A DNA stretch of 64,000 nucleotides from an uncultured Bacilli bacterium (GTDB taxonomy: Bacteria > Bacillota_I > Bacilli_A > RF39 > UBA660): contig CAKOYV010000004.1 of NCBI GenBank assembly GCA_934131005.1, positions 37,344-101,343 of the forward strand, read 5' to 3'. Under the pieces are notes generated by a model, which was not told where the DNA came from, made no database searches, and was given only the letters and a program-made list of their open reading frames with translations. Below are positions 20,261 through 64,000 of this stretch, piece by piece. Numbering within the stretch: the first letter of the stretch is position 1; each line of letters opens with the position of its first letter. A program made the position numbers and the translations under genes.

Positions 20261-21330
20261 TTACTTTTTTTCTCCAAAATGCTTTATTGGACTCAATATT
20301 TTATACTTCTCACACTTATCTCCATTCAAAGTATAAACCTTTGAACAACTATATTCCGCTTTAGCATCCTTCTTATCATTAAGAACACACGTATTTCCCG
20401 CTAAGGCATAACCATCACTACATTCAAATCCCTTTATAGCATCAGCTGTTATTGTAGCAACACACTGATCTCCCTTAAGTTCTAATCCACCAGCACAATA
20501 ATATTTAGGACTTGGCTGAATAGAAGATGTTGTAATACATTGATTACCATAAGTCTGATAACCAGATGGACAACTATATTTAACTGTTGCTGGTATAGTT
20601 ACACTATAAACACAACTGCCACCACTCAAACTACCATTAGAACAATAAGAACTACCACGATTATAACTAGCATCCTTATAACATTGAGTACCACTCTTAG
20701 TATATCCATATGGACATTCACAAGTTGTAGTTGTAGAACTTTGACATCCAGGATAATATGGGTTATATCTACAAATATAAGAATTATTATATCCCCCACC
20801 ACTTGTTGAACAAGTAGCATTTCTATAGCACTTACTTCCAGACAATGTATCACCACTACTACAACTATATCCCCCACCACTAGTAATTGGAGAACTATAT
20901 TCCGTCTTACTACATTTATTTCCAGACAAAGTATAACCAGATGGACAACTGTAACTAGCACTAGCTGTTTTATTACTAGCTGTAGAACACTTATTATCAT
21001 ATAAAATATAACCAGATGGACAAGTATAAGTAACAGCAGCCTTTGTCTTCTGTTCCTGAATACATTTATCCCCCTCTAATCTTCCAAGTCCAGCACATTG
21101 ATAAGCTTGCTTAGCATCCTTAGTATCGCTCTTTAAACATACCTTATCCTGTAAAGTATAACCATCATCACAAACATATTTAACATTAGCATCAATAGAT
21201 TTCAATGTTTTACTACATTTATTATTTTTATTTAAAGAATAACCCTTATCACAAGTATACCAACCCTTAACACAAAGACCATAATTATTTATATAACCCT
21301 TATCACATTTTTTAGTACTAAAAACACATC
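20261..21330 (-). repeat. Coding tandem repeats: about 13 Cys-bounded 12-residue loops (C-x-x-G-Y-x-L-x-G/N-x-K/Q-C) in the kinase ectodomain
   Basis: Examples: CDKGYSLNKNNKC, CDDGYTLQDKVC, CPSGYTLSGNKC, CPSGYQTYGNQC, CSDGYALAGNTC. Confidence 0.7.
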
Positions 21331-22549
21331 CCTTTAATAACAACAAAAGCAAAATAATTAAAATACCTATAATAATATTTTTTCTATTATCAATATAAAA
21401 TTGCTTATCAGATAATTTTTCTCTTAATTCAACAATAGAATCAATAATTTTTTCACAAATATTATCCTCACCAAAAATACTTTCCTTTTTATCAATAATT
21501 TTATTCAAAAACTTATCATAAATAAAACCATGTCGCCTATTACTAGCAGTTTTATTATTATCAACAGCTACACTACTATCTACATTGCTATTAGACAAAC
21601 GATTAACATCATAAATACTAATAGTTTTATTCGAACCAATTATATTTTGAGCATCCTTATTTGCAATAGAATTATCATCCCCATTATCAGTCAAAAAACG
21701 CTTCAAAGCCCCCTTCATAACACTAACATCTTTATATCTATCAGTAACATAAAAAGCACAAGCATTAAAAATAATCGTCATCAAATCATTGCTAACACCC
21801 TTAATAATAGGAATAACAGAGCCAGACATTCTAAGCTTAAAAGCCATTTTATCACTAACAAACAAACCAACAAAAGGCAACTTACCTCTATTCAAGAATT
21901 GATACATAACAAGCCCTAAAGAATAAAGATCAGCACTATTAGTAATATTCTCATTATTATAAACTTCAGGAGCCACATAAAGACAATTATTATCAATTTT
22001 ATCTAAAACACCAAAATCTCCTAACTTATACTTACCATCACTACCTATAAAAATATTATTTGGTTTAATATTTTTATGAACTATTCCATATTTTTTCAAA
22101 AACTCTAGTGCATTACAAATATCAATTCCCATTTGAGCAATATCATTAACCAAAAGTTTTTTATTATTAAAATCTCCTAAAACTTCAGAAACTAATTCCA
22201 TTCTTAGATAAACATCATATCCCACTCCATCTCGATGTGGCTCCTGATAATAATCATAATAATTTAATATATATTGATTATTATATCTTCTAATAATATC
22301 AAAATCTTTTTTTAATTCATCTAATATTTTTTTATAATAATCATTGGCTTCATTTCTTGATTTTATTAATCCTAGACGTATTAATTCATCTATATCACCA
22401 GTTGTTTTAGGAAAGCTAATATACTTAATAGCACTATAAACATTAGCATTTCCATTATTTTTAACAGCTTTATAAACTTCTCCTGTACTACCTTCACCTA
22501 TTTTATCAACAATCTGCCAGCCATCCCATAAAACTCTTCTCATATTCAC
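20261..22549 (-). CDS. Hanks-type Ser/Thr protein kinase homolog (HRD->HKN variant) with TM segment and extracellular Cys-bounded repeat domain
   Basis: IGEGSTGEVYKA, AIK, DFG and APE are present. The catalytic loop reads VHKNIKPNN. TM segment IIIGILIILLLLLL. About 13 C-x2-G-Y-x-L-x-G-x-K-C units in the C-terminal part. Confidence 0.85.
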   Translation of the reverse strand: MNMRRVLWDGWQIVDKIGEGSTGEVYKAVKNNGNANVYSAIKYISFPKTTGDIDELIRLGLIKSRNEANDYYKKILDELKKDFDIIRRYNNQYILNYYDYYQEPHRDGVGYDVYLRMELVSEVLGDFNNKKLLVNDIAQMGIDICNALEFLKKYGIVHKNIKPNNIFIGSDGKYKLGDFGVLDKIDNNCLYVAPEVYNNENITNSADLYSLGLVMYQFLNRGKLPFVGLFVSDKMAFKLRMSGSVIPIIKGVSNDLMTIIFNACAFYVTDRYKDVSVMKGALKRFLTDNGDDNSIANKDAQNIIGSNKTISIYDVNRLSNSNVDSSVAVDNNKTASNRRHGFIYDKFLNKIIDKKESIFGEDNICEKIIDSIVELREKLSDKQFYIDNRKNIIIGILIILLLLLLKGCVFSTKKCDKGYINNYGLCVKGWYTCDKGYSLNKNNKCSKTLKSIDANVKYVCDDGYTLQDKVCLKSDTKDAKQAYQCAGLGRLEGDKCIQEQKTKAAVTYTCPSGYILYDNKCSTASNKTASASYSCPSGYTLSGNKCSKTEYSSPITSGGGYSCSSGDTLSGSKCYRNATCSTSGGGYNNSYICRYNPYYPGCQSSTTTTCECPYGYTKSGTQCYKDASYNRGSSYCSNGSLSGGSCVYSVTIPATVKYSCPSGYQTYGNQCITTSSIQPSPKYYCAGGLELKGDQCVATITADAIKGFECSDGYALAGNTCVLNDKKDAKAEYSCSKVYTLNGDKCEKYKILSPIKHFGEKK

Positions 22550-24876
22550 CTCCTATTATTTAATTGTCTTCTTAACAAGAAATAGCACGCTACTAAAATT
22601 ACCAATCCCATTAAAACTATAATTTTAATATCATTCATATAATGTACTTTTGTAAAAATAAAATAATCTTCAGGATCCCTCTCATAACTAGGTTGCAATT
22701 TTTGAATTTCATTAGGCATACTATTCAAATCGCATGTAATACCAAAAAGTTGAATAGCCCATCTATCTAAAATAAATACCGATAATTTTTCTAAAACTCC
22801 ATCAAGTGGCAAAAAAGAACCATTTAAAACAAGTTGAGGTATAAGTGTAATTGGCGCTAACATAACAGCATTAGATGAATTTTTAGAAATTGCTGACAAA
22901 AACAAACCTAAACAAGTTGAACAAACTGTTATTAAGAAAAACGAGCCCATCATCTCAAGAGGCCAATTAGTCATTATTCCATCATCCGGAACAAAACCAA
23001 AGAAATACATAAAAACAGAAATAAATAGCACCGACTGAATCAAACACAAAATAATTTGAATCCATAATTTTGATGCAAAATATGCCGACAATTTCAAATC
23101 TGCCATATATTCTCGCTTCAAAATTGATCTTTCTTTACAAATAACTTGAATAGAATTAAGCGTTCCTAACCAAATTGCTGCTATTGTCATCGCAAACAAC
23201 ATCATTTTTGTCGTTTCATACCCCTCAAACATATCATCAGGAGCAACTAATGCAAACATATAGGCAATAAATGGAGACTGTAATAACAATAAAAGTAACA
23301 TCTGCCTATCATTCAAAATAGTTTTTGCATATCTCTTAGATAAAGTAATAAACTGTTTCATAAAAGATCTCTTATTTCTTCCCTGTTTAACAAAACTATT
23401 AGAACTCTTACGGACTACTACTTTCTCACAATATGCTGAATTATTATAAGCATTATACCATTTATTAACATCACTACTAATCAAATTATAAATATCAACA
23501 AAATCATTAACCCCAAAAAAATTAAGTGTATCCCTTGGTGAGCCCGCAAAACAAAGCTTTCCTCCTTCACCAAAGAAACAAATTTTATCACATAAATGCA
23601 AATTCAAAGTATTATGTGTTACTAAAATAATTGTCTTCCCACTAGCAGCCATCTTTTTCAAAATATTCATCAAACTTCTCTCTGTACCAGGATCAAGACC
23701 GCTAGTAGGTTCATCTAGGAAAAACAATTTAGGATCTGCTAATAACTCAACAGCTATACTAGCTCTCTTTCTCTGACCACCAGAAAGATTTCTAATCATA
23801 ACATCTTTTTTAGTTGTTAGCTCTACTATCTCTAAAACTTCTTTTATTCTTTTGTTCTTCTCATCCATTGTAGCATCATCTGGCATTCTTAAATTAGCCG
23901 AATATTTCAACATATCATATAAAGTTAAATCTTTAAAAACAATATCATCTTGAGGAACATAACCAATAATTTTCTTCAAAACAGCATAATTTTTAAATAA
24001 ATCATTACCATTAACATAAACATGACCACTCGTTGGACGTGAAACTCCACTAATACAATTCATAAAAGTACTCTTACCAGCACCAGAGCCACCAACAAGT
24101 GCAACAAATTCCCCAGGTTTAATAGATAAATTAACATGATAAGAAATATCTCTTTTTTTTCCTTTAACACTAACAGTTTTAACTATATCAACTGCATCAA
24201 CTCCAACACCTCGATCATACATTTGATAAAAAATTCTTCCCTTATCATATATCAACTTAGCATCTGCAATTAAAATAACATCTCTTTCTTTTAAAACCAC
24301 TTGTCCCTTTAATAAATAGCCATTAACAAGAATACTACTAGTAGGATCATTAGAAACTAAAATGAATTTATCACCATTCTTATAAATATTAGCAATATTA
24401 AGTGCAACACTAACATGATGAAGAACTATATCTGATTTAACATCTCTACCAATAGACACAACATCTTTAGAATTTAAATCAAACTGCTGCCAAGCATCAA
24501 CATTTTCTCCCAAAGAAATTATCATAATTACTCCTATTGCAAGAGGAGAAGCAGGATTATCTATCTTAATAGCATCACCATCTCGTAAATAAATTTCACT
24601 TACTCTATTATTATTCACAAAAATTCCATTTATACTATTATTATCAACAACTTTAAGTTTATCATCAACAAATTCAAAAAAACCATGATTAGGAGAAACT
24701 AATAAAGAATTCAATATAATATCATTATTACTATTCCTTCCAAACAAAATTCTTTTTTTTCTAAATTTATTTAAAACTATATTTTTAATGTTATTTTCTT
24801 CAATTATAGTAACTGTATATTTTACATCCTTTTTTAAAGAAGAATTAGCTATAACCTCGCTCATTTTACCAGCCAC
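22546..24876 (-). CDS. ABC transporter (NBD-TMD fusion, ABC-2/ABCG-like) with two N-terminal FHA domains
   Basis: Two FHA signatures (GR...S..H...NG). Walker A GGSGAGKST, ABC signature LSGGQRKR, Walker B FFLDEPTSGLD. Six C-terminal TM helices. Stop overlaps the kinase start by 4 nt. Confidence 0.85.
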   Translation of the reverse strand: MAGKMSEVIANSSLKKDVKYTVTIIEENNIKNIVLNKFRKKRILFGRNSNNDIILNSLLVSPNHGFFEFVDDKLKVVDNNSINGIFVNNNRVSEIYLRDGDAIKIDNPASPLAIGVIMIISLGENVDAWQQFDLNSKDVVSIGRDVKSDIVLHHVSVALNIANIYKNGDKFILVSNDPTSSILVNGYLLKGQVVLKERDVILIADAKLIYDKGRIFYQMYDRGVGVDAVDIVKTVSVKGKKRDISYHVNLSIKPGEFVALVGGSGAGKSTFMNCISGVSRPTSGHVYVNGNDLFKNYAVLKKIIGYVPQDDIVFKDLTLYDMLKYSANLRMPDDATMDEKNKRIKEVLEIVELTTKKDVMIRNLSGGQRKRASIAVELLADPKLFFLDEPTSGLDPGTERSLMNILKKMAASGKTIILVTHNTLNLHLCDKICFFGEGGKLCFAGSPRDTLNFFGVNDFVDIYNLISSDVNKWYNAYNNSAYCEKVVVRKSSNSFVKQGRNKRSFMKQFITLSKRYAKTILNDRQMLLLLLLQSPFIAYMFALVAPDDMFEGYETTKMMLFAMTIAAIWLGTLNSIQVICKERSILKREYMADLKLSAYFASKLWIQIILCLIQSVLFISVFMYFFGFVPDDGIMTNWPLEMMGSFFLITVCSTCLGLFLSAISKNSSNAVMLAPITLIPQLVLNGSFLPLDGVLEKLSVFILDRWAIQLFGITCDLNSMPNEIQKLQPSYERDPEDYFIFTKVHYMNDIKIIVLMGLVILVACYFLLRRQLNNRR

Positions 24877-43727: not shown

Positions 43728-44324
43728 TTACCAACTTTTTGTTCCATCACTACAAGCAAACATAGTACCCTGAGCAGCTGTAAAATTAAAAGTTGGCATA
43801 ATATCTTTAAAAGAGCTTACAGCAGTATTATTTTTTTTATAATTATCAACATAATAACTTCCACTCTTATTTGCAAACATACAAACAACAAACTTAGCAT
43901 CTGTAGCATTAAAATAAACAAATGAATCACTAACATCTGTTGCACCACTTGACAACTTCATACCCTCTGCTGTAGCATCTTGACCTGCATTCAATTGATA
44001 AGCTGATTTACTAATATTAAATGTGTTAGCTAACTTTGAAGATATATAGTAAGCTTGGGTAGATTGAAAATTATACCCTTTATTATTAAGTACATCACCA
44101 TAAACATTACTAGGAACACCATCTACTAAACTTTCTGTATACTTTTGATTAAACGCTTGAGAAATAGTTACCGCACTATCTTGCAATGATCCTCCTCTAG
44201 CTTTATTCATTGAACTTAAAACACTAGTCATTGCAATACCCATAACAACAGCAAGTATAACAACAACAGCCAATAATTCTATTAAAGTAAAACCTTTATT
44301 ATCTAATTTTCTTAATTTCATCAT
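43728..44324 (-). CDS. Type IV pilin (prepilin-type N-terminal cleavage/methylation domain)
   Basis: MMKLRKLDNKG|FTLIELLAVVVILAVVMGIA. C-terminal Cys pair (C...FACSDG) suggests a disulfide-bonded D-region. Confidence 0.8.
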   Translation of the reverse strand: MMKLRKLDNKGFTLIELLAVVVILAVVMGIAMTSVLSSMNKARGGSLQDSAVTISQAFNQKYTESLVDGVPSNVYGDVLNNKGYNFQSTQAYYISSKLANTFNISKSAYQLNAGQDATAEGMKLSSGATDVSDSFVYFNATDAKFVVCMFANKSGSYYVDNYKKNNTAVSSFKDIMPTFNFTAAQGTMFACSDGTKSW

Positions 44325-52215: not shown

Positions 52216-52716
52216 TCAACACTTAATTTTCAAATCATTATTAAATAAATCAAATAAAAATGGTGATATTTTTTCATCTTTTAAATCATCTAATGAACTA
52301 ATTAATCTATATTCTGAATGTTCTTCTAATTGTAATTTTATATTTTTAATATCATCAATTAAATCACATAGATAAACTAATCTTATAAAAATCAAATCTT
52401 TACTTTCATCATAATTACTATCTTCATGAATAATCATCGTTAGAATAATATTAAGTCCTATCTCTTCCCTAGTCTCTCTAACTAGTGCTTCCCTTGGTAA
52501 TTCTCCATAATCTGCCAATCCTCCAGGAATATCCCAATATTCAGGATATGTTGTCTCACAACTAGAACGTTTAGTTAATAAAAATTTATTATTAACTTTA
52601 ATCAAAGTATGTACAATAATTCTATTACCATTCACAAATATCCACTCCTCTAAAAATTTTAATATATATTCAGAAAAAAAGAAATCTCCCAAAAAAGAGA
52701 AATCTCTAATCTTCAT
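52216..52716 (-). CDS. NUDIX hydrolase
   Basis: Nudix box GG.........REALVRETREEIGL. Confidence 0.8.
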   Translation of the reverse strand: MKIRDFSFLGDFFFSEYILKFLEEWIFVNGNRIIVHTLIKVNNKFLLTKRSSCETTYPEYWDIPGGLADYGELPREALVRETREEIGLNIILTMIIHEDSNYDESKDLIFIRLVYLCDLIDDIKNIKLQLEEHSEYRLISSLDDLKDEKISPFLFDLFNNDLKIKC

Positions 52717-54178
52717 TACTTAAATATTCAAACAAAGCAAATCTTCCTTCTTTATGAACCAATTTATAATTAGGAGATGCTGATAATATTTGATTCAAAT
52801 CTGTATCTACATAAATAAGAATATGTGTAATATCATACTTATTAAATACTCTACCATAATTACTAGTAATATGCATACATTCATCAAATATATCAAACTT
52901 ACCATTAAAAGGCTTCGTATATAAATCACTTCTAGAATCAATATAAACTTTCAAATCACGATAAAGTAAATAACTACCAAAATCATAATCATTATAAAGT
53001 CTAATCTTTTTAACATCCATATTCTTATACATATAATCAACCATCGAAACAGGATACAAATCTTCATCAATAAAACTCTTCTTAGCATTAACATTGTAGA
53101 CAAAAACAGAAGTAATAATTACCACTACCAGGACAATAAAATATCCCAAACTAGGTATCTCTATATCACTAACTTTACTAATATCAATAACACTACAAAG
53201 CAATCTACACAAATATATAGTCCCTATAACAGCAAGCAAACTAACATGTCTACTAGATAAAAAGGCCATAATAACCAAACCACATATCATAAACAAATCT
53301 CTTAGCCTAATTTTAACTTTCATAAAAATAAGTGGTATTAATAATATTAACAAATATCCCCATACAAAAGCATTTTCAACTAAAACAAGTGGCTTATGTT
53401 CCTCAATAAACTTCATAGTATCCCCTTGTAATGTCTTAATAAAATAAGTATAAGGCGTAAAACCAATTGGAGTAAGCAATCCTAAAAACAAACTTATTCC
53501 AAAAACAATAAGCAACATTTTAATATTATCTTCTTTTTTTATAATAACTTTATCATAAAATAAATTCTTAATTCTATCCCACTTAAATTTATTACTAATT
53601 TTATAAATAAATGCCTCTGCTACAAAGGGAAGCATCAAAATAAAATAAAATGGCCATACAGCAGCATGCATATTAGCTATCAAGATACAAATAACAAACA
53701 ACCAAGTAGCATACCTCTTATTACTACTAGATAACAACCTCTCTATAAAATAAACTTCCAATAAAAATAAAAAATAAGTAAATAACTGTGCTCTAGCAGA
53801 TGCATAATTAGCAAGCATAATAACTCCCAAAATACTAAATAATAAACTCATAAAGTAACTTTTATTAAGCCGCAGATTAATTAAATAAAATGATATACCA
53901 ATAATTATAAAACAAAGTATTGTAAATACATACAATCCACTAAAATTATATAAATCATAAACTTTATAAATAATAACATCATATAACCAATGTGGATAAG
54001 TATAACTTAAATTATGCCATGAAAAATGGTCCTTCATATCAATACCATTTTTCATAACAAGCTTCCCAATCTTAATAGTATAAAAAGTATCATTTTGAAA
54101 ACTTCTAGGAGTATAAGCAATACATATTGCAATTATTATTAAAATACTAACTACTAATAAAGACTTTTTTTTCACCAA
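52706..54178 (-). CDS. Polytopic membrane protein (about 12 TM + C-terminal soluble domain), possible GT-C-type glycosyltransferase
   Basis: 490 aa. Many TM helices. About 120-aa hydrophilic C-terminal domain. Fold assignment is speculative. Confidence 0.5.
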   Translation of the reverse strand: MVKKKSLLVVSILIIIAICIAYTPRSFQNDTFYTIKIGKLVMKNGIDMKDHFSWHNLSYTYPHWLYDVIIYKVYDLYNFSGLYVFTILCFIIIGISFYLINLRLNKSYFMSLLFSILGVIMLANYASARAQLFTYFLFLLEVYFIERLLSSSNKRYATWLFVICILIANMHAAVWPFYFILMLPFVAEAFIYKISNKFKWDRIKNLFYDKVIIKKEDNIKMLLIVFGISLFLGLLTPIGFTPYTYFIKTLQGDTMKFIEEHKPLVLVENAFVWGYLLILLIPLIFMKVKIRLRDLFMICGLVIMAFLSSRHVSLLAVIGTIYLCRLLCSVIDISKVSDIEIPSLGYFIVLVVVIITSVFVYNVNAKKSFIDEDLYPVSMVDYMYKNMDVKKIRLYNDYDFGSYLLYRDLKVYIDSRSDLYTKPFNGKFDIFDECMHITSNYGRVFNKYDITHILIYVDTDLNQILSASPNYKLVHKEGRFALFEYLSNED

Positions 54179-54180
54179 AA

Positions 54181-55077
54181 CTACCTACTTTCCCATAAAT
54201 TACTAGGATAAACACCCTCTTTAATTAAATTATTTATACTATCCTTAAGTTGCTCTAAATCCTCTCTATAAGTCATTCCATTAAATTTAGATGTTGTATG
54301 AAGAACTCTAACCTTGCCACATCCCTCATCAATACTTTTTTGCACAATTGTAGGTAAATAAAATTCTCCTTTAATTTCATCATAACCTTCATCAAAAAAT
54401 TCTCTAAAATATCTCTTTGCATCCTCAAATACACGTGGTGTAAAACCAAATAAGTTTACAGATACAGGCGTATTTCCATCAATTGGATAGCATTCTGAAT
54501 CTTCCTCATAAACAAGCTTATCACCAACATAACCTATTTTGGTTCTCTCTGTAACAGACTCCAAATAATTATCACGAACACAACAAACACCACGAGAAAC
54601 TGTACCATTATCACTCAAAGTATTACAAAGCTTATAAGCAACCATAGCATAATCACCATCTTTATCAACATCCTTAAGATAACTAGCAAGAGTATGAAAA
54701 GCATCATATCCATAAAAATCATCAGCATTTATAATAATAAAATTATTATTAATATACTCCTCACTACTAAGCAAAGCTTGTCCAGTCCCCCAAGGCTTAA
54801 CTCTTCCCTCAGAGACAACAATTCCTTCAGGTACATCATCCAATTTTTGATAAGCATAACAAACTTCAACCTTCTCTTCAATTCTCTTACCTATAGTATC
54901 TCTAAATAAATCTAAATGCTCTTCCTTAATGACAAAAATTACTCTATCAACCCCAACTTTTATTGCATCATATATTGAATAATCAATCAAAAACTCTCCA
55001 CTAGGTCCTACTGGTGTCAATTGTTTCATACCACCAAATCTACTTCCCATACCAGCAGCCATTACAACTAAATTCAT
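54181..55077 (-). CDS. Sugar-phosphate / MobA-like nucleotidyltransferase family protein
   Basis: N-terminal MAAGMGSRFGG.KQL matches the G-x-G-(S/T)-R nucleotide-binding loop of NTP-transferases. 298 aa. Confidence 0.6.
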   Translation of the reverse strand: MNLVVMAAGMGSRFGGMKQLTPVGPSGEFLIDYSIYDAIKVGVDRVIFVIKEEHLDLFRDTIGKRIEEKVEVCYAYQKLDDVPEGIVVSEGRVKPWGTGQALLSSEEYINNNFIIINADDFYGYDAFHTLASYLKDVDKDGDYAMVAYKLCNTLSDNGTVSRGVCCVRDNYLESVTERTKIGYVGDKLVYEEDSECYPIDGNTPVSVNLFGFTPRVFEDAKRYFREFFDEGYDEIKGEFYLPTIVQKSIDEGCGKVRVLHTTSKFNGMTYREDLEQLKDSINNLIKEGVYPSNLWESR

Positions 55078-55079
55078 CT

Positions 55080-55775
55080 CTACATTCCTCCTCTAAAACA
55101 AATTATCCATAAAATAAAAATTATAACTAATATAACACAAGATAATTTTGTTACTCTAAACTTTTTCCTATCCTTAGCATACATCTTTTTACAATCATAA
55201 ATTCCACTATCAACAAGCTTAATTCCTTTAACTGAATAACTTGATAAGTCTCTATCACTTATAACCGTAAAAGATGTACAATCATCCAAATCTAAATATC
55301 TAACTGGCCCCACTTTAATAAAATATATAAACATAACAATATCTCCAATAGAACCAACAATATTCATAATAGACAAAAATACTAACATATAGCTATTGAC
55401 AATCATTCCAATAACTAGTGTAACAATCCCAATCAAAACAACGGGAAATAATAAAGAAGTAAGTATAACCCTACGAGGTATTTCTTGTTTACACATACAA
55501 TAGAAAACTCCCATATCAAGCGACATTCCAAAAACTATATTATGTCTATCAACACAAGAAAACAAAGAAAATCCAACTCCATGTAACCCTTCATGTAATA
55601 TCATCCATAAAAATACATATATAATTAAATTAAAACTATAGCTAATATTATAAGTATCATTATGTTCAATAACTAAAACTATAAAAGTAACAACTAAAAA
55701 TAATAAAATTGCCATTATATTTAAAATAGTCATATCTAATTTATACGTATAATACTTACTCTTCACAATTATCAC
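55080..55775 (-). CDS. Membrane-embedded putative zincin metallopeptidase (HExxH; DUF3267-like)
   Basis: HEGLH motif (ILHEGLHGVG) between TM helices. 231 aa with 5-6 TM helices. Confidence 0.55.
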   Translation of the reverse strand: MIIVKSKYYTYKLDMTILNIMAILLFLVVTFIVLVIEHNDTYNISYSFNLIIYVFLWMILHEGLHGVGFSLFSCVDRHNIVFGMSLDMGVFYCMCKQEIPRRVILTSLLFPVVLIGIVTLVIGMIVNSYMLVFLSIMNIVGSIGDIVMFIYFIKVGPVRYLDLDDCTSFTVISDRDLSSYSVKGIKLVDSGIYDCKKMYAKDRKKFRVTKLSCVILVIIFILWIICFRGGM

Positions 55776-55833
55776 ACCTTAATTATATCATCCCATAATT
55801 ATTATGTAAATTATATTAACTTATAATAAATTA

Positions 55834-57423
55834 TTACAAGCTACGCAAACACTCTTGAAAATAATCATTATGAATAATCATACTATCCTTAAAATAACCA
55901 TCAATATCAAAATTAAGCCCCTTATTATCTCCCCTAATATAATAAACCATTCTAAAAGCATAATTAATTACTCTCTTAAGCTCTCTTTTATCACACATAG
56001 AAATATCCATATAAGCCAAATTATTAAAATTCTTATCAATAACAAATCTCATAAATCTATAACTATTAGACAAAACAACAGGATACTTTCCTTCTACTAA
56101 AAAACTATCATTATCAAATTCAAAATCTCTCTTAGAAGCTTCTTTCAATATAACTTCAACAATAGCATTCCCCAAACTAACATTCTTAAAATTAATATAT
56201 TTAAAAATACTATTATTATTTCTAATAAAATAAGATAACATATGTTTATTTTCTACTAAAACAGGATTCAAATATCCATCACTACCTAAATAATTCTTAA
56301 CATCAAAAGTATTTCTCTTATATTTATTTAAATAAATATCCACAATCTTATTAACTTCATCTCGATCATTTAACATAATATAGTTAATATTCCTTGCATC
56401 CTTTCCTATTAAATAAACCATAAACATATAATTACTATAAAATAAATTTCTAAAAGGATATTTGCAAATATCAAATTCTATATTTTCCCTAACCAACTTC
56501 AAAGCTAAATTATCAATTATTCTTTTTATATCTTTACTAATAATATTATGCCAATCAACAAATTCTACATTATCAACACATCTATCTATCATATAATTAA
56601 CAAACTCAAAATCTTTATTTAAATATTGTGCTAAATAAATATTGCTCTCAACCAACTCTATAGCACAATCATGACTATTAATATAAGTAATAATAGCCCT
56701 AACAATTCTATGCCAATCATTATCAACAAAATTATTCATATACCTCTCGTCTAAATATTTAACACAAGTAATATCTTCTTCAATCATATATTGTAAAAAA
56801 TCTATATTTTTAAGCAATACTTCTGGCAATTTTTTATTAACATAAAATTCCTCAATTTTATACTTTCGCTTTCTTATTCTTAAAATAGCTTCTTTAATAA
56901 TCTCTCTCTGACTCATCTTAATATTATCACCATATTTTATATATTTAACATTATAAGCATCTAATTCTGTTAAATATTTCATAAAATCCAATGACATAGC
57001 TAATCTCTCAGGAAGAATACCAGGATAGACCAAAAATTCCTTCACACTAACCTTAATTTCTTCCCTTCTAATAATACACAAACTCTTCTTAATTATCTCT
57101 TCTGCCATATCATCATCTATCATAAATTTATCAATAAATATCAAATTATTTATATCATTGCAAACTAAACTATCACAAAAATAATAGCTATTAAAAAAGC
57201 TAACTTCCACACCTTCATCATAATATCTTGCTTGCTTATCATTAAAAAGCATCCCTAAATCTGCTTCATCACCAAAACATTCAAAATAAATATCAATAAC
57301 TCTCATCTGCGATTTTTCTTTAAGTTGAAAAAATTCCAAACAATGTTGTGGTAAATTATTTTTATCTTTTTTTATCTTATACTTAAATAGGAAAAAAAAC
57401 ACTTCTAGCATATCATTTGTCAA
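55834..57423 (-). CDS. Hypothetical cytoplasmic protein built of about six 60-65-aa tandem repeats
   Basis: Repeats share an L-x2-L-x2-N-x-(D/E)-F-x2-Y-(M/I)-I-x-(D/E)...N-(I/V)-x-Y-(I/L) pattern. Examples: LPERLAMSLDFMKYLTELD, LPEVLLKNIDFLQYMIEED, LAQYLNKDFEFVNYMIDRC. Confidence 0.5.
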   Translation of the reverse strand: MTNDMLEVFFFLFKYKIKKDKNNLPQHCLEFFQLKEKSQMRVIDIYFECFGDEADLGMLFNDKQARYYDEGVEVSFFNSYYFCDSLVCNDINNLIFIDKFMIDDDMAEEIIKKSLCIIRREEIKVSVKEFLVYPGILPERLAMSLDFMKYLTELDAYNVKYIKYGDNIKMSQREIIKEAILRIRKRKYKIEEFYVNKKLPEVLLKNIDFLQYMIEEDITCVKYLDERYMNNFVDNDWHRIVRAIITYINSHDCAIELVESNIYLAQYLNKDFEFVNYMIDRCVDNVEFVDWHNIISKDIKRIIDNLALKLVRENIEFDICKYPFRNLFYSNYMFMVYLIGKDARNINYIMLNDRDEVNKIVDIYLNKYKRNTFDVKNYLGSDGYLNPVLVENKHMLSYFIRNNNSIFKYINFKNVSLGNAIVEVILKEASKRDFEFDNDSFLVEGKYPVVLSNSYRFMRFVIDKNFNNLAYMDISMCDKRELKRVINYAFRMVYYIRGDNKGLNFDIDGYFKDSMIIHNDYFQECLRSL

Positions 57424-57538
57424 CTCTTTTCTATAATAATAATTCTATCATAATATTAACAAAAAAAAAAGAATCTTAATTTACTTTTTTGAAACAAATT
57501 AGAAAACTTTATCATCATAAGTAAAAAAGAAAGAAGAC

Positions 57539-58447
57539 TTATCTAGAAATAAATTTTCTTTCTTTTTTTCTACCATAACTATTTTGATGAGCAATATTAT
57601 CACTCATTTCTTGACCATTTTTCTGTAACTGTTCTCTCAAAACAGCACGAGTATAATAAACAGCACCAGCTAAATCAATTTCTTTATCAACAAAATCGTA
57701 TTTTTTGCAAGCACTCTCCCAAACATCTAAATGATTTTGAATAAAATTACCATTAAGACTAAGAGTTTCTGCATCTTGCATTCTAATTTTAGCACGAAGT
57801 CGCATCATTTTACCAAAATATTCTGTCAGCTTATCATAGTCATATTCTCCACCATGCAATTCATAAATATCATAAAAATCTTTCACTCTAGTATTAAGAA
57901 CATCCGCTCTTTTACTTTCTAAAATGATACATAATTTTTCAGCCAAATACTCTTCAAAAGATGGAACATAAATATAAAATGGTTCATCACCTTCAAAAAT
58001 AGGTGGCATCATTCTAGTAGTTGGCTCAATAAGCCTATTATAATTATCTTGAATATCAAGTCCTAGAGGTTGACTAATAGTTCCATATTCACCCTTTAGA
58101 GACATTTTATAAATACCAGTAGGCGTTCTATGAACACTTCTATTTAATTTAAATTTAAATAAACCATCACTACTATTTATAATCCTGAATAAAAGTGGAG
58201 CATTCAACTCAAAATCATTAAATAAGGCTAAGTCAACATCTGTAATTGCTCTAACTAATCTACCTAAATAAGCAATCTCTGCTGAACTACCTTTAATCAT
58301 AATTTCTTGATCAGACATTTTGCTAACTTTCTCCAAAAAATTTCTTGCAACAAAAGTTGTATAAACACCTCCAATATTCATATCAAGTCTCTCTGCTTCT
58401 TTTTTCATATAAGCTTTCATTTGATTACTATTTCTAAATTCAACCAT
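57539..58447 (-). CDS. Nucleotidyltransferase of the AbiEii/AbiGii (DUF1814) toxin family
   Basis: IKGSSAEIAYLGRLVRAITDVDLA fits the NTase G-S...D-x-D core. FEEYLAEKLCIILESKRADVLNTRVKDFYDIYEL fits the C-terminal AbiEii helix block. Start taken at the ATG (MVEF...); the ORF track extends to a TTG at 58498. Confidence 0.6.
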   Translation of the reverse strand: MVEFRNSNQMKAYMKKEAERLDMNIGGVYTTFVARNFLEKVSKMSDQEIMIKGSSAEIAYLGRLVRAITDVDLALFNDFELNAPLLFRIINSSDGLFKFKLNRSVHRTPTGIYKMSLKGEYGTISQPLGLDIQDNYNRLIEPTTRMMPPIFEGDEPFYIYVPSFEEYLAEKLCIILESKRADVLNTRVKDFYDIYELHGGEYDYDKLTEYFGKMMRLRAKIRMQDAETLSLNGNFIQNHLDVWESACKKYDFVDKEIDLAGAVYYTRAVLREQLQKNGQEMSDNIAHQNSYGRKKERKFISR

Positions 58448-58505
58448 ATCATCACCACCATTGCCAATTATTCTAGCACCTCGGCCAAAGCTTGTCAACT
58501 ATAAA

Positions 58506-58652
58506 TTAATTATTTAAATAATCATTAAGAACTCTAGCAAGTTCTAATTTATCAATTGGTTTAGCTAAGTAATCATTAAATCCTAATTTTAAATATTTCT
58601 CTTTCATCCCACTAATAGCATTAGCAGTTAAAATAACTGTAGGTATTTTAAA
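58506..58652 (-). pseudogene. Gene remnant: C-terminal 46 residues of a response-regulator receiver domain, no start codon
   Basis: Translation FKIPTVILTANAISGMKEKYLKLGFNDYLAKPIDKLELARVLNDYLNN*. It is preceded by an in-frame TGA and is in the same frame as the upstream hybrid kinase gene. Confidence 0.6.
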
Positions 58653-58682
58653 TCAATTATTATAATAATTAGTACATAATTT

Positions 58683-60545
58683 TTACTCATTCATATTTTT
58701 ACTACTTAAACAATTATCTATTTTTTCCTTAATAATTTCTTTAGTAAATGGTTTTGTCACACAATCAGTAAAACCTAAAAGTTTATACTTTTCTTGTGCA
58801 CCGTTTATAGCATCAGCTGTCAATGCTATAACAGGAATATCAAAGTTGGGAATTTTTCTTAATTTATTCATAGCCGTTACTCCACTCATAACAGGCATCA
58901 TAATATCCATTAAAATAATATCATAATGATTTGCTTTTACCTTATTAATAGCTTCCTCACCATTATAACATTCATCTATCTTTTTAAAATTTAAAGAACT
59001 TATAGCTCGTTTAGCAACTTTAATATTAAGTTTATTATCATCAACTATTAGAATAGTTTTGTCCTGATAATTAATATCATTTGATTCTTGTTCAATTTTT
59101 GGAGAAGAAATATTTTCCAAATCCTTTTTAGTAGCTATTTTTTGAGGTAATGTCACCATAAACATTGATCCTTTACCAAAAGTAGATTCAACGTTTATTT
59201 TTCCACCTAATAACTCAACTAGTTTTTTGGTAATAGCAAGTCCCAAGCCAGTTCCCTCTGTTGTAGTATTTTTTTCAATATCTAAACGTTCAAATTTATG
59301 AAACAACTTATCTATATATTCCCTCTTTATACCTCGCCCACTATCTTTTACGGTCATAAATAATAAAGATACTCCCTTTTTATTTATACATTTTATATTT
59401 AATTCTATACTTCCTTCATCGGTATATTTAATTGCATTAGAAAGTAAATTGTTCAAAATTTGTTTTACATGTACTTTATCACCATTTAAATATTCTGGAA
59501 TATCCTGAGCAATATTTAACTTATAATTAATTGGTTTGGTACCTATTCTAGTTCCATTAATTTTAAATAAAGTTTCAACTTCCTCTTTAAAATTATAAAC
59601 TATCTCATTAATTTCTAATTTATCACTCTCAATTTTATTAATATCCATAATATTACCAACAATTTCAAGAAGTGTATGTGAAGCTGAGATAACATCATCA
59701 ACATCTTCTTTCATACTAGACGGTAACTTTTTGTTATCAGCCATATCTTCACATAATCCAACAATAGCATTTAGAGGCGTTCTTATTTCGTGAGACATGG
59801 AAGATAAAAAATCACTTTTTGCAGAATTGGCCTTTTCAGCTTGCTCCCTCGCTATATTTAAAGCTTCTATCATTTTAATATCAGGATTTTCAATAGTAAA
59901 ATACATTAAATTAGTCACAATTGCAAAAGAAGAAGAAATAATTAAAAAACCTGGATTAAATGCTCTTATAACTAGAGCTAAAATCATAACAAAAATAAAC
60001 ACTAAAACTGGAATATATTTTTTCTTTTCTTTATTTATTCTATTTGCATAACAAACTACCCAACTAATAAGATAAATTAAAACTATTACATATAATAAAT
60101 TTGCACTAACTCCATATGAATAAACAATATTATTTTGATTGTAATATTTAAGTGGTAAAAATAATAAAAGACTTATAACAACAAACCACAATATAACAAA
60201 AAACATACTACACTTTCTTTTCAAATTAAACTTATCTTCTTGTTTTTTAAATGAAATAGAATAAATATATAAAGTAAATAATGATTGCCACAAAAATATA
60301 ACAATTAAAAATACCCGATTAATCAATTCCGTTAAAAAAGGAATTTTATCCATATTAGATACTGTTACACAACAAAGTATTTCCATAATTAAATTTACAA
60401 TATTAACAATAATAAGACTTCCATACAAATCAGTTTCCAAATTATGAATTCTTTTTTTATTAAAATAAATAACACCAATAAAAATACTATAAAGCAAATT
60501 ACAAGCAATAATAGCTAGTCCTAAATACACAAAAAACACCTCCAT
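58683..60545 (-). CDS. Hybrid sensor histidine kinase (multi-TM sensor + HisKA + HATPase_c + C-terminal receiver)
   Basis: Six or seven N-terminal TM helices. H-box SHEIRTPLNAI. G-boxes DSGRGI / GTGLGLAI. Receiver ILIVDDN...DIILMDIMMP...TKPF. Confidence 0.85.
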   Translation of the reverse strand: MEVFFVYLGLAIIACNLLYSIFIGVIYFNKKRIHNLETDLYGSLIIVNIVNLIMEILCCVTVSNMDKIPFLTELINRVFLIVIFLWQSLFTLYIYSISFKKQEDKFNLKRKCSMFFVILWFVVISLLLFLPLKYYNQNNIVYSYGVSANLLYVIVLIYLISWVVCYANRINKEKKKYIPVLVFIFVMILALVIRAFNPGFLIISSSFAIVTNLMYFTIENPDIKMIEALNIAREQAEKANSAKSDFLSSMSHEIRTPLNAIVGLCEDMADNKKLPSSMKEDVDDVISASHTLLEIVGNIMDINKIESDKLEINEIVYNFKEEVETLFKINGTRIGTKPINYKLNIAQDIPEYLNGDKVHVKQILNNLLSNAIKYTDEGSIELNIKCINKKGVSLLFMTVKDSGRGIKREYIDKLFHKFERLDIEKNTTTEGTGLGLAITKKLVELLGGKINVESTFGKGSMFMVTLPQKIATKKDLENISSPKIEQESNDINYQDKTILIVDDNKLNIKVAKRAISSLNFKKIDECYNGEEAINKVKANHYDIILMDIMMPVMSGVTAMNKLRKIPNFDIPVIALTADAINGAQEKYKLLGFTDCVTKPFTKEIIKEKIDNCLSSKNMNE

Positions 60546-60593
60546 ATGTTACCTGAAATTATTATAACATACAGAAGCACTTTTTTAAATAAA

Positions 60594-62441
60594 TTATTTT
60601 TCTTTTCGCATCAAAGTTTTAGACTTCGCTTTTTTATTATTTTCCAATTGCTTTAAAGCAATAGTATCTATTTTACCAATAGCCGTTACTGGAAATTTAT
60701 CAAGAACCTGATAATCATATGGTAAAGAATACTCTGCAAGTTGTTCTCGACATAAACGCTCAATCTCATTCAAAACTACTTCTTTATCTCTTGAATTATC
60801 TTTTAATATAATAAATGCCTTAGGCAATTCTCCTTGTCGTTCATCATAATCTCTACATCCTACTACTTTACATTCAGAAACATCATCACAAGATAAAATT
60901 ACCTCCTCAATAGATGAAGGATAAACCTTAAAACCATCAGGTCTAATAATCATTTCTTTATATCTTCCTTCAACAAATAACAATCCATCCTGATCAAAAT
61001 ATCCCAAATCACCGGAATAAATAGTAGCTTTACCATTTTCATCATGTAAAATTTTCTTCTCTTCCTTATCATTATTGTAATAACCTATCATTACATTTGG
61101 ACCAGAAATTCTAACCTCACCTTTATTATTATAAGTTAATTCTTGACCATTTTCTGGATCGTATACCCCCAAATTACATTTATACAACGGTATACCAACA
61201 CTTTTCAATTTATTAGCTTCATTAGTTACACAAACACTAACAGCAGCATCAACCTCACTCATACCATAACCTTTTATAATTTTAGTTTGACAATTATGTG
61301 CCCTCAAAAATTCATTAACTTGTTTCTCTAAAGTATAATCCATCTTATCACCACCAACAATCGGCGTTTTAATAAACGATAAATCAACATTGGCTAATTT
61401 TTTACTTGACAATAAATAACCATAATGAGATGGAACACCAGCCATATAATTTGGTTTATGTTTTAGCAAAATTTCATCATATTTAGAAGGATCAAATTTA
61501 GGCATCAAAATTACTTTCATATTCATAGATAATGGTAAATGCAAACCATTTCCAACACCATAAACAATAAATGGTGGCATAATATCTAACCAAGTTCCAT
61601 GATCATTAAAATCAAGTCCACTAATTTCACACTGATATGCACAACAGTTAATATTATCATTAGACAAAATTACTCCTTTTGCTTTACCAGTCGTCCCACC
61701 AGTATGTACAATTGTTACTGGCATATTTGCCTCATACAACACTTCATCTGCTTTTTCATTAGAATTTTTCCTGATATCAACAAAATCATCCCACTTCAAC
61801 ACTTCATTTGTATCAATAAATCTTTTCTCTTTACTAGTAATTTTATCTTTAAATTTCATTATCTTTCGAATTGGTGCTTTAAAACTTTCGTATGGAGTTA
61901 CCATTATAATTTGCTCAACAGTAGTATTTTTTTTCAAATTCCTATACTTCTCTCCAGCAACATCTATTCCAAAAAAAAGTTTTGAATTTACTTCATTAGC
62001 ATACTCCTCTAACTCCAAAGAACTTTTTCTAGGATCAATCATATTTGATATTGCACCAATTTTTGATAAAGCATAAAATAAGAAAACCATCTCCGGTGTT
62101 GTTGGCATACAAATTGTTACAATATCACCACGTTTAACATTCATAGCTTTCAATGAATCTGCAGTTTGATCTATTTTTTCAATTAACTGCTTATATGTCA
62201 ATTTATTACCAAAATATTCAATCGCTATATTATTCATATTATCCTTATTTTTTTCCTTTAAATATCCATAAATAGTGTCTTTAGGCATATCACTCATTAT
62301 AACATCTTCACTATAATATTTTAACCAAGGTTTATCAATACTAGCATACCCTGTAAGAGGACCATAAATTTTTCCTAATGCTAAATTTCTTAAATGTAAA
62401 TCTCTTAATTTTTCCTCATTTAAATTTAAATTATTAATCAT
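60594..62441 (-). CDS. AMP-binding enzyme (acyl-CoA synthetase / adenylate-forming ligase family)
   Basis: AMP-binding P-loop TGGTTGKAKGV. YGMSE and GDLGY motifs. 615 aa. Confidence 0.8.
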   Translation of the reverse strand: MINNLNLNEEKLRDLHLRNLALGKIYGPLTGYASIDKPWLKYYSEDVIMSDMPKDTIYGYLKEKNKDNMNNIAIEYFGNKLTYKQLIEKIDQTADSLKAMNVKRGDIVTICMPTTPEMVFLFYALSKIGAISNMIDPRKSSLELEEYANEVNSKLFFGIDVAGEKYRNLKKNTTVEQIIMVTPYESFKAPIRKIMKFKDKITSKEKRFIDTNEVLKWDDFVDIRKNSNEKADEVLYEANMPVTIVHTGGTTGKAKGVILSNDNINCCAYQCEISGLDFNDHGTWLDIMPPFIVYGVGNGLHLPLSMNMKVILMPKFDPSKYDEILLKHKPNYMAGVPSHYGYLLSSKKLANVDLSFIKTPIVGGDKMDYTLEKQVNEFLRAHNCQTKIIKGYGMSEVDAAVSVCVTNEANKLKSVGIPLYKCNLGVYDPENGQELTYNNKGEVRISGPNVMIGYYNNDKEEKKILHDENGKATIYSGDLGYFDQDGLLFVEGRYKEMIIRPDGFKVYPSSIEEVILSCDDVSECKVVGCRDYDERQGELPKAFIILKDNSRDKEVVLNEIERLCREQLAEYSLPYDYQVLDKFPVTAIGKIDTIALKQLENNKKAKSKTLMRKEK

Positions 62442-62612
62442 TATTACTCCTCACTTCCAAATTTGAATCTTATTCTAATAACAAATCTAATTATTATCAT
62501 GATTACTAATTAAATATAACATTTTTTGTTATTAAAAGATATTTATTTTTCTTATAGTTAACAAAAAAAAGAGAACCTAAGTCTCTAATATCCAATTACT
62601 ATATTATAATTA

Positions 62613-63641
62613 CTACTTTTTTCTACCTAAAATTTTATGATACTGACTACCTAATTCCTCATAATCCAAATTTTGCATAGTTCCATTATAACTATTTCCA
62701 ATTAAACCCTCTGGTGTAAAATAATATAACTGACAGCATTTCATATTTTCATAAATTCTAATAGGATGAGTAGGCCTAACTCCCATATGCCAATATCCCT
62801 TATAACCAATTGATCCCATACCAGCAGAACAATGAACATGATATCCAAGTCTTCCTAAAGAACTTCTTCCACTCATCATAGGCACCAAATTCACAGTCTC
62901 CGTCCACTCATTACTTCTTGCAACATAAACTTTATCAGGATATAAAACCAATCCCTCATCTCCTATTTTAACATTCTCAACACGATTATTTTTCTTCAAA
63001 TCAAGTACAGGTTCAGTATAATAGCCTATATTCTTATTCAAACTCAAATTTACTGAATTAGGATTAATCACAATATTATCTTGTGGCGTTATTAAAATAT
63101 CTCCCATGTGCATTCTGTGTTTTATCTCCTCACCACTAAGCATACCAATCTTATCACTTTTCTCATCTAAACTCTTAAAAAAAGTTAAATTTCCTACTTC
63201 AATATTAGGATAAATAACAACAGGCATCGTTGAAACAATACTAAGTAAAAAATTACCATCATAATTATCAGTTCCATAACCACTATTAAGTTCAATACTA
63301 ACTCCCAGCAAAGATAATGAAGTTCTGCCATTTAAAACAGGAACATAACCATTAGTTTTTATCCTCTCAGATGTTTTAGCCAAATACATCTTCCGAGGCT
63401 CTAACACCAATCCTTCTTTAGGAATCTTAACTCTCCTTAACCTACTCACCTCATCCGTAGCAATTTCCCTCAAATATGTATTTTTTTCTTTTGTATCAAC
63501 AATAGAGTAATCAAAAGTATATAAAACATCAGTTATGCTAACAATGCAACTATTTGGTTTCGATAAAGCTCCCTCTTTTAAATTATCAATTTGTATATTA
63601 CCATTATTCATCTGTTTTAATATTTCATTACTCGTCAACAT
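62613..63641 (-). CDS. dCTP deaminase/dUTPase-fold protein with internally duplicated domain (342 aa)
   Basis: Two copies of the GR(T/S)SL.(L/R)LG trimeric dUTPase-fold motif: VLNGRTSLSLLGVSIE and MMSGRSSLGRLGYHVH. Confidence 0.6.
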   Translation of the reverse strand: MLTSNEILKQMNNGNIQIDNLKEGALSKPNSCIVSITDVLYTFDYSIVDTKEKNTYLREIATDEVSRLRRVKIPKEGLVLEPRKMYLAKTSERIKTNGYVPVLNGRTSLSLLGVSIELNSGYGTDNYDGNFLLSIVSTMPVVIYPNIEVGNLTFFKSLDEKSDKIGMLSGEEIKHRMHMGDILITPQDNIVINPNSVNLSLNKNIGYYTEPVLDLKKNNRVENVKIGDEGLVLYPDKVYVARSNEWTETVNLVPMMSGRSSLGRLGYHVHCSAGMGSIGYKGYWHMGVRPTHPIRIYENMKCCQLYYFTPEGLIGNSYNGTMQNLDYEELGSQYHKILGRKK

Positions 63642-64000
63642 TTCTAACTCTTCCCTTCACTAGCTTTTTTCCATATTCTCGATTTATCCTAGATTCCGTT
63701 GGTACGACCTGCCCAAAATACTTACCACGATATTCTATTTTAGGATCTCCAACTAAAGAATAATAATATATCTTCCCAATCGGCATATTTGGATAGACAA
63801 TCGTAGGATTCGCACACACTATTTCAAGAGTCCAAGTCCCCTCAAATCCATTATCTCCAAATCCTGCCGTTACATGAATTTCAACACCCAAAGTTGCAAG
63901 TTCATTTAATCCAGAAAGTAAAGGTACATAACCATAAGTTTTAGTATACTCATTAGTACTACCTAAATATAACTTATTTGCTTCCAACAATAGCCCACCA
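63628..64000 (-). CDS. dCTP deaminase-like protein, C-terminal part (N-terminus beyond the window end)
   Basis: YVPLLSGLNELATLGVEIHVTAGFGDNGFEGTWTLEI. Paralogous to the neighbouring gene and overlaps it by 14 nt. Confidence 0.55.
   Translation of the reverse strand, partial: GGLLLEANKLYLGSTNEYTKTYGYVPLLSGLNELATLGVEIHVTAGFGDNGFEGTWTLEIVCANPTIVYPNMPIGKIYYYSLVGDPKIEYRGKYFGQVVPTESRINREYGKKLVKGRVRNVDE

Follow-up and report, generated by a model that had tools for sequence, protein, structure and literature searches.

This work concerns two adjacent genes in a 64,000-nucleotide stretch of DNA, called the window below, from an uncultured Bacilli bacterium (contig CAKOYV010000004.1, positions 37,344 to 101,343). 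One of them, on the minus strand at 57539-58447, encodes a solitary 302-aa nucleotidyltransferase (NTase) assigned to the AbiEii/MenT family (DUF1814) by Pfam, PADLOC, motifs and predicted fold. The other, on the same strand at 55834-57423 and separated by a 115-nt spacer, is an open reading frame (ORF) for a repeat protein of 529 aa if read from its TTG. A preliminary description had presented an orphan AbiEii-like NTase paired with this repeat protein. We found that the NTase is indeed an orphan but that the pairing is contradicted by comparative context: the two are probably chance neighbours, an NTase cassette having inserted beside an unrelated envelope-associated scaffold gene, and not a toxin with its partner. 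Every gene of the surrounding 52-62 kb segment (G+C ~27%) is carried by the minus strand, and the order in the direction of transcription is AMP-binding enzyme, hybrid kinase, receiver fragment, NTase, repeat protein, DUF3267, NTP_transferase, 490-aa membrane protein and NUDIX.

The nucleotidyltransferase and its solitary clade

The NTase reading frame gives 302 aa from its ATG and 319 aa if an upstream TTG is used. It matched Pfam PF08843 AbiEii with 46.4 bits (gathering cutoff 22.5, E 6e-12) and the PADLOC AbiEii model PDLC02288 nearly end to end (residues 4-281, E 1.4e-20), so that the Pfam and defence-finder searches proposed beforehand both recovered it. The G-S...D-x-D core and the EEYLAEKL...KDFYDIY block on which the first assignment was based are present and invariant across the clade described below. 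Motif I/II comprises K52-G53-S54 and, after 15 residues, D70-V71-D72, with R66 at position D-4 relative to D70; D131 is the third acidic residue, motif III reads A169-E170-K171-L172-C173 with hydrophobic flanks around K171, and motif IV (+DxxD) reads K189-D190-F-Y-D193. Aligned with one another, 30 members of the clade have a mean column identity of 68%; 72 columns are invariant and include all catalytic residues, with K171, K189, D190, D193 and the motif I/II residues kept throughout. Similarly, every residue defined as essential by Dy et al. 2014 (PMC3985639), namely hG[G/S]x15DhD, the Arg inside motif II, the Lys of motif III and the +DxxD of motif IV, is retained in the 30 members. By family match and motif content, the gene is a bona fide DUF1814 nucleotidyltransferase without AbiEi.

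The nearest solved relative by sequence was Streptococcus agalactiae AbiEii (PDB 9HLO chain B; ~25% identity over residues 11-261, E 8e-7). Both are DUF1814 NTases of the same size and have in common G[GS]x15DxD, an Arg at D-4, the motif III Lys and the motif IV +DxxD. They differ in three respects: the window NTase has neither an AbiEi gene nor an overlapping bicistronic operon; T65 of AbiEii, at D-2, is replaced by Ile68, with an invariant Thr at D-1 instead; and the promoter of the window gene is its own and of constitutive type, whereas the AbiE promoter is repressed by AbiEi. Membership of AbiG, considered because this best PDB match is named 'AbiGII', was dropped, since the structure solved in 9HLO is that of AbiEi:AbiEii from S. 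agalactiae; the label on the chain is a misnomer, and misannotation as AbiG is known (PMC3985639; bioRxiv 10.64898/2026.01.19.700257). Nor did any window neighbour match the AbiGi family at E <= 0.01.

An AlphaFold2 model of the NTase (pLDDT 87) was compared with solved structures by Foldseek, and the top nine matches were all MenT3/TglT (Rv1045, Mycobacterium tuberculosis), aligned over the full length of the model with TM 0.67-0.73, the best at E 2e-9. The predicted structure has the bilobed MenT3/AbiEii fold, and a catalytic architecture shared with MenT3 would imply NTP-dependent nucleotidylation of tRNA 3′ ends. The two nevertheless share only 13-14% sequence identity, and MenT3 is neutralised by MenA3 via phosphorylation of S78, whereas the window NTase has neither such a partner nor an equivalent Ser/Thr. 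JHP933, Pb27, ANT(2'') and MenT1 gave weaker, partial fold matches (TM 0.36-0.47 for ANT(2''), JHP933 and Pb27). Among these, JHP933 of Helicobacter pylori is also a DUF1814-fold NTase, solved as a single protein, and matched with E 6e-7 to 1e-6; its TM is 0.43-0.47, and it is shorter (225-232 aa) and misses part of the C-terminal helical lobe. Taken together, the AbiEii matches, the intact motifs and the full-length MenT3-like model point to a structurally complete and presumably active enzyme.

The gene has the features of a transcription unit of its own. A consensus-site scan placed a sigma-70-type promoter at 58470-58498 on the minus strand (TTGACA, a 17-nt spacer and TAGAAT with a TG-extended -10), 22 nt upstream of the ATG; with 11/12 consensus matches it is the best-scoring sigma-70-like site in the 4 kb examined (55-59 kb). 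At the other end, RNA folding revealed an A/U-rich hairpin across the NTase stop codon (57511-57579, minus strand; -21.3 kcal/mol, z = -4.2, 0/200 shuffles as stable) that ends in a U-run. A consensus terminator scan of the region had called nothing, the hairpin being poor in G-C pairs. It likely closes a monocistronic unit as an intrinsic terminator. Most homologues similarly have their own TTGAAA/TTGACA, ~17 nt, TGnTATAAT promoter directly upstream, irrespective of the neighbouring gene, and a strong, G-rich ribosome-binding site directly upstream. Comparison of the 90 nt upstream of the homologues L015-L046 showed that most share cTTGAAAAA, ~17 nt and TGtGATATAAT; in L021 and L023-L026 an inverted TGTG...CACA element surrounds the -10 box and could be an operator.

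A scan of one genome per GTDB species recovered 33 full-length relatives at 37-70% identity, all from metagenome-assembled genomes of uncultured gut Bacilli, 'Tenericutes' or Erysipelotrichaceae. Clustering of neighbouring ORFs showed that the NTase is solitary in 33/33 loci and in many different contexts. Local synteny aside, no family is common to these loci, and the repeat protein has no relative among the clusters. Among 45 immediate neighbours each Pfam family was seen at most twice, many being housekeeping genes, and AbiEi was absent among their listed Pfam and PADLOC matches. Likewise, AbiEi was not among the best 25 families listed when the window ORFs were compared with PADLOC and Pfam. 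The absence of AbiEi upstream of the NTase, claimed at the outset, was borne out: the flanking genes are a 620-aa hybrid kinase upstream and the repeat protein downstream. A hidden antitoxin was also sought on the antisense strand inside the NTase gene, where no ORF is conserved. Three further homologue contexts agree: in one the NTase gene adjoins Abi_2 and a trypsin-PDZ protease within a defence island of variable content, and in another it lies between a polysaccharide deacetylase and DUF975. In the former (L007-L010, 3788-7250) a 70%-identical homologue directly follows the Abi_2 gene and the protease, and beyond it lies a variable region of DNA methylases with HNH, a helicase with a phosphoesterase, or AbiEi_4 with Fic, which resembles a defence island hotspot. 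The clade had no match in a plasmid collection; phage collections gave a single 39%-identical, unannotated 5-kb 'Bacteriophage sp.' fragment, and IMG/VR solely canonical AbiEi-AbiEii pairs at 25-30% identity. The NTase is mobile as a self-contained unit and always solitary across the clade.

Distant matches from the genome and IMG/VR scans, being canonical AbiEii genes (n = 25), served as controls. In 25/25 of them the end of an upstream ORF runs 4-14 nt into the NTase reading frame. This ORF measures ~200 aa in 24 controls and 120 aa in one, and five of the eight tested matched PF13338 AbiEi_4; the same procedure found an overlapping upstream AbiEi-type ORF in 0/33 clade loci. The adjacent AbiEi gene that characterises AbiE (COG5340, ~200 aa, with a winged helix-turn-helix) is accordingly missing from the NTase locus. 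The catalytic motif differs as well. Canonical AbiEii read R-x-T-x-D-x-D (24/24 with a readable motif), whereas solitary clade members read R-x-[I/V]-T-D-x-D with identical spacing (30/30); the window NTase has R66-A67-I68-T69-D70, in which I68 aligns with AbiEii T65. AbiEii T65 and MenT3 S78 are phosphoacceptors, auto-phosphorylated upon antitoxin binding, whereby the toxin is silenced (bioRxiv 10.64898/2026.01.19.700257). The Thr/Ser that AbiE has at D-2 is thus lacking from the NTase and its clade, where Ile or Val stands instead. Since Thr occurs in the controls, with their AbiEi-type ORF, and Ile/Val in the solitary clade, loss of the antitoxin gene goes with loss of the phospho-switch residue, and with neither of them present the NTase would have to be controlled in some other way.

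The repeat protein and its conserved neighbourhood

Gene callers and homologues favour a start of the repeat protein at the ATG at 57411, which probably makes it 525 aa long. Its repeat motif begins at residues 147, 209, 274, 334, 395 and 457, a spacing of 60-65 residues, and the periodicity is far beyond chance. A BLASTP self-comparison returned no internal repeats, the method being too insensitive, and profile-profile comparison was needed: when segments of the family alignment were compared with each other by hhalign, most aligned in register with E down to 1e-13. Pairs with repeat 6 were weaker, and the comparison of repeats 6 and 7 was not significant. The same comparison added a degenerate first repeat at residues ~72-134, giving seven repeats of which six are clear. 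The six repeats of 60-65 residues counted in the preliminary description therefore stand, with a degenerate seventh added. The whole array spans residues ~72-505 (55909-57210, minus strand) and is followed by a conserved C-terminal cap.

The structure prediction that had been suggested for this protein alongside repeat detection gave a confident AlphaFold2 model, an all-alpha solenoid (pLDDT 91.8). From the PDB, Foldseek retrieved just generic HEAT/ARM/PUF-like solenoids at E above 1e-3 and TM below 0.25, and Pfam, PADLOC and NCBIfam gave no match. The family is narrow. It comprises 112 proteins at 90% clustering, with full-length members of 521-536 aa and none carrying a Pfam domain, and in an exhaustive search with a profile hidden Markov model 48 of 1.84 billion representatives matched. 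DUF4116 (PF13475) resembles the family in its short helical repeats with a hydrophobic/aromatic core motif, and 12/44 homologues matched it weakly (best E 3e-4), as did the protein P0248. All these matches lie below the gathering score, the DUF4116 unit is 49 residues long against ~62 here, and the window protein gave none even at E <= 10. A 659-aa protein upstream of the repeat gene in one relative (L003) was tested as a possible paralogue and is not one.

The repeat gene occupies the same position in six more distant relatives, 40-57% identical (L001/2, L003/4, L005, L057/58, L059 and L060/61), and an NTase stands beside it in none of these six contexts. Upstream lies a hybrid kinase, IleRS, ThyX, a TMEM43-like or another unrelated gene, never AbiEii. 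Downstream the neighbourhood is far more constant. In the window the repeat gene is accompanied by a block at 52706-55775, which lies on the minus strand throughout. Its genes encode a zincin-like membrane protein of the DUF3267 family (55080-55775) and an NTP_transferase (54181-55077), both recognised by Pfam, and a 490-aa polytopic membrane protein (52706-54178). NTP_transferase follows in 9/9 repeat-protein contexts and DUF3267 in four of the six distant relatives (L003 has KilA-N there and L005 nothing); a ~495-aa membrane protein is found in at least five of the six, with no match in L003, and LicD follows the block in L001, L005 and L057. The repeat gene is accordingly a lineage-specific, conserved resident that heads a block recurring with variations in relatives. 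The window NTP_transferase is close to PDB 3PNN (E 2e-68), a chain named merely 'Conserved domain protein'.

In five distant relatives (608-685 aa) the homology to the repeat protein is confined to its cap and the two to four repeats that precede it, and three of these proteins (P0244, P0247 and P0253) have an N-terminal Polysacc_synt/MurJ (Wzx) flippase domain. Homology of these Wzx/MOP flippases to the window protein covers its final two repeats and its cap, with profile E of 1e-22 to 1e-31; P0244 (L056, 6001-7962), which shows 43% identity over 139 residues, is encoded in a classic Wzy-dependent polysaccharide locus. The homologous portion forms a C-terminal cytoplasmic tail in all three. 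The flippases differ from the window protein, which is free-standing and soluble and has seven repeats, in that they are membrane transporters whose short tail contains two or three. Because of this gene neighbourhood and domain fusion, we regard the repeat protein as most likely a predicted protein-binding scaffold in surface-glycopolymer synthesis or export, and not an antitoxin.

Chance neighbours or partners

The NTase and the repeat gene are adjacent in one species only, represented by the window, a sister strain (L006) and a third contig (L079); across genomes the two do not co-occur as a two-gene module would, as seen in the six repeat-gene contexts and the 33 NTase loci. As the repeat gene is a conserved resident linked to cell-surface sugar genes, we take the two for chance neighbours. 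A single-gene cassette, made of its own promoter, the ORF and the terminator hairpin, would have inserted just downstream of the hybrid histidine-kinase gene in this species. By homology, its product would transfer nucleotides from an NTP, with Mg2+, onto the 3′ end of an RNA. The target of MenT1, MenT3 and AbiEii is the acceptor CCA of tRNA, and the modification blocks aminoacylation. The NTase would be kept harmless by something other than AbiEi, and the role we favour, by analogy with these toxins, would be that of a latent single-gene abortive-infection or stress effector, active only when triggered; an abortive-infection-like role for the NTase alone is possible. The repeat protein, for its part, would be a cytoplasmic alpha-solenoid of seven ~62-residue repeats acting as a scaffold for surface glycopolymer synthesis or export.

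The preliminary description had instead suggested a pair in which the repeat protein replaces AbiEi, that is, an NTase toxin with a non-canonical antitoxin or sensor encoded downstream, together forming an abortive-infection module. Adjacency and common orientation, repeated in L006 and L079, speak for such a pair, and helical repeat proteins can serve as sensors in defence systems. But L006 and L079 belong to the same species, with flanks 98% identical; the repeat gene stands without an NTase at the same place in six distant relatives, the repeat protein is missing from all 33 NTase loci, and its module instead occurs in fusion with Wzx flippases. The terminator hairpin and 115 nt between the genes, together with the promoter of the NTase, separate two transcription units. 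We consider the pair very improbable. Somewhat more credit is due to the idea of a conventional AbiEii/MenT toxin neutralised in trans by an antitoxin from another genomic locus, the catalytic motifs being intact and the examined stretch being 64 kb of the genome; separate AbiEi_4-containing genes do lie a few kb away in L009 and L010, where they are paired with other effectors. The solitary state, however, holds in 33 genomes and many contexts, the D-2 position is Ile/Val clade-wide against Thr in 24/24 canonical toxins, and the copies are driven by promoters of their own, their architecture giving no hint of an autoregulated AbiEi-type operon. We judge this explanation improbable.

A benign enzyme, constitutively expressed across the clade and acting on a small-molecule or antibiotic substrate, as ANT(2'')-Ia does, or in routine RNA modification, would fit the constantly solitary state, the strong, constitutive-looking promoter, the high conservation between species and the frequent housekeeping neighbours (tRNA synthetases, EF-Tu, IF3, gyrase B and ScpA). 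It would also fit the absence of the clade itself from plasmid and viral collections, where only one 39%-identical fragment and 25-30% relatives occur, and the DUF1814 superfamily has non-toxin members in ANT(2'')-Ia, JHP933 and Pb27. Yet the fold matched over the full length is that of MenT3, a tRNA-modifying toxin (TM ~0.7), those three being partial matches; the toxin-type motifs III and IV are intact, and some copies lie in defence islands beside Abi_2, restriction-modification or RecD-like genes, so that a benign role appears unlikely, if worth serious consideration. Finally, a decaying leftover of an AbiE operon, minus its antitoxin and heading towards a pseudogene, might be suspected from the gene fragment immediately upstream, which marks a rearranged region. 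This is hardly credible: the fragment derives from a histidine kinase and not from AbiEi, the NTase reading frame is intact with its 72 invariant columns over 30 members and all catalytic residues, and its solitary state, being common to the whole clade, is no local accident.

Several points weigh against our own interpretation of chance neighbours, one a latent effector and the other an envelope scaffold. The invariant T69, at D-1, might itself be a phosphoacceptor, and an antitoxin may sit elsewhere in the genome, beyond the 64 kb of the window. Conservation within the clade is unusually high, with 56-70% identity between species, and its members are often found amid housekeeping genes, which fits a non-defence enzyme equally. 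As for the envelope role, it is drawn entirely from neighbourhood and domain fusion; the predicted fold matches nothing solved, and the link to DUF4116 is sub-threshold.

A more far-reaching proposal combines two novelties: the solitary clade as a new, antitoxin-free branch of the AbiEii/MenT toxins that act on tRNA, a single-gene effector of defence or stress transcribed from its own promoter, in which another control (through T69, a host Ser/Thr kinase/phosphatase or direct activation by a phage product) has taken the place of the D-2 phospho-switch, and a new family of ~62-residue solenoids docking onto Wzx-type flippases in gut Bacilli. We hold it as tentative and, as a whole, rather doubtful. 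Few predicted defence systems are as abundant as AbiE, which defence-finding tools call solely when AbiEi and AbiEii co-occur, so that solitary AbiEii-like genes are ignored. Because the clade described here is conserved, has its own promoter, has no adjacent antitoxin gene and lacks the D-2 residue, it raises the question of how a MenT-like enzyme is tolerated alone and what it does. The case also warns against over-reading adjacency, since the supposed partner turned out to be resident in a cell-envelope gene cluster. Its family, an unannotated solenoid, is a small starting point for work on the surface polysaccharides of uncultured gut Bacilli. What interest remains is modest, and lies in an AbiEii/MenT clade that is conserved, has no antitoxin gene beside it and is altered at its regulatory site, and in an envelope-linked solenoid family.

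The receiver fragment and wider surroundings

Upstream of the NTase, in a short non-coding stretch, lies a receiver-domain pseudogene fragment (58506-58652, minus strand). The fragment had been noticed beforehand and is present as described, except that it measures 48 codons plus a stop and not 46 codons. Its peptide, FKIPTVILTANAISGMKEKYLKLGFNDYLAKPIDKLELARVLNDYLNN followed by the stop, matches the C-terminal 48 residues of the L006 kinase without a single difference, which also ruled out a degraded AbiEi as its origin. The next genes upstream, both on the minus strand, encode the 620-aa hybrid histidine kinase (58683-60545; Pfam matches to HisKA, HATPase_c and receiver) and the AMP-binding enzyme (60594-62441). 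This kinase is the upstream neighbour and stands outside any NTase system.

Comparison with the sister strain L006 explains the fragment. The two are 97-98% identical on the flanks 55110-58652 and 62513-63988, and the 98% nucleotide identity resumes precisely at 58652; between the flanks, the proteins are only 42% (kinase) and 25% (AMP-binding enzyme) identical. The remnant is, as these alignments indicate, the 3′ end of an ancestral L006-type kinase allele, the scar of an allelic replacement of the AMP-binding and kinase genes. The swapped cassette corresponds to 58652-62513 of the window and 1476-5335 of L006, with one junction inside the receiver domain. L079 carries the window-type cassette, and its AMP-binding gene is split into two ORFs.

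Elsewhere in the window, two minus-strand genes at 20261-24876 encode a 762-aa Ser/Thr kinase and, with a 4-nt overlap, a 776-aa ATPase-like protein. The kinase matches PADLOC mad6 (E 3e-36) and PD-T4-6, and the ATPase-like protein mad3 (E 3e-32), AriA and mad8; generic domain similarity or a defence-like pair could each account for this. N-terminal sequences identify EF-Tu-, EF-G-, UvrA- and topoisomerase-like genes in the wider window, which is core chromosome. A prepilin-type N-terminal signal (KGFTL[VI]E[ML]LAVVVILG/A...) opens the minus-strand ORFs 1-377 and 43728-44324, suggesting pseudopilin or competence-pilus genes.

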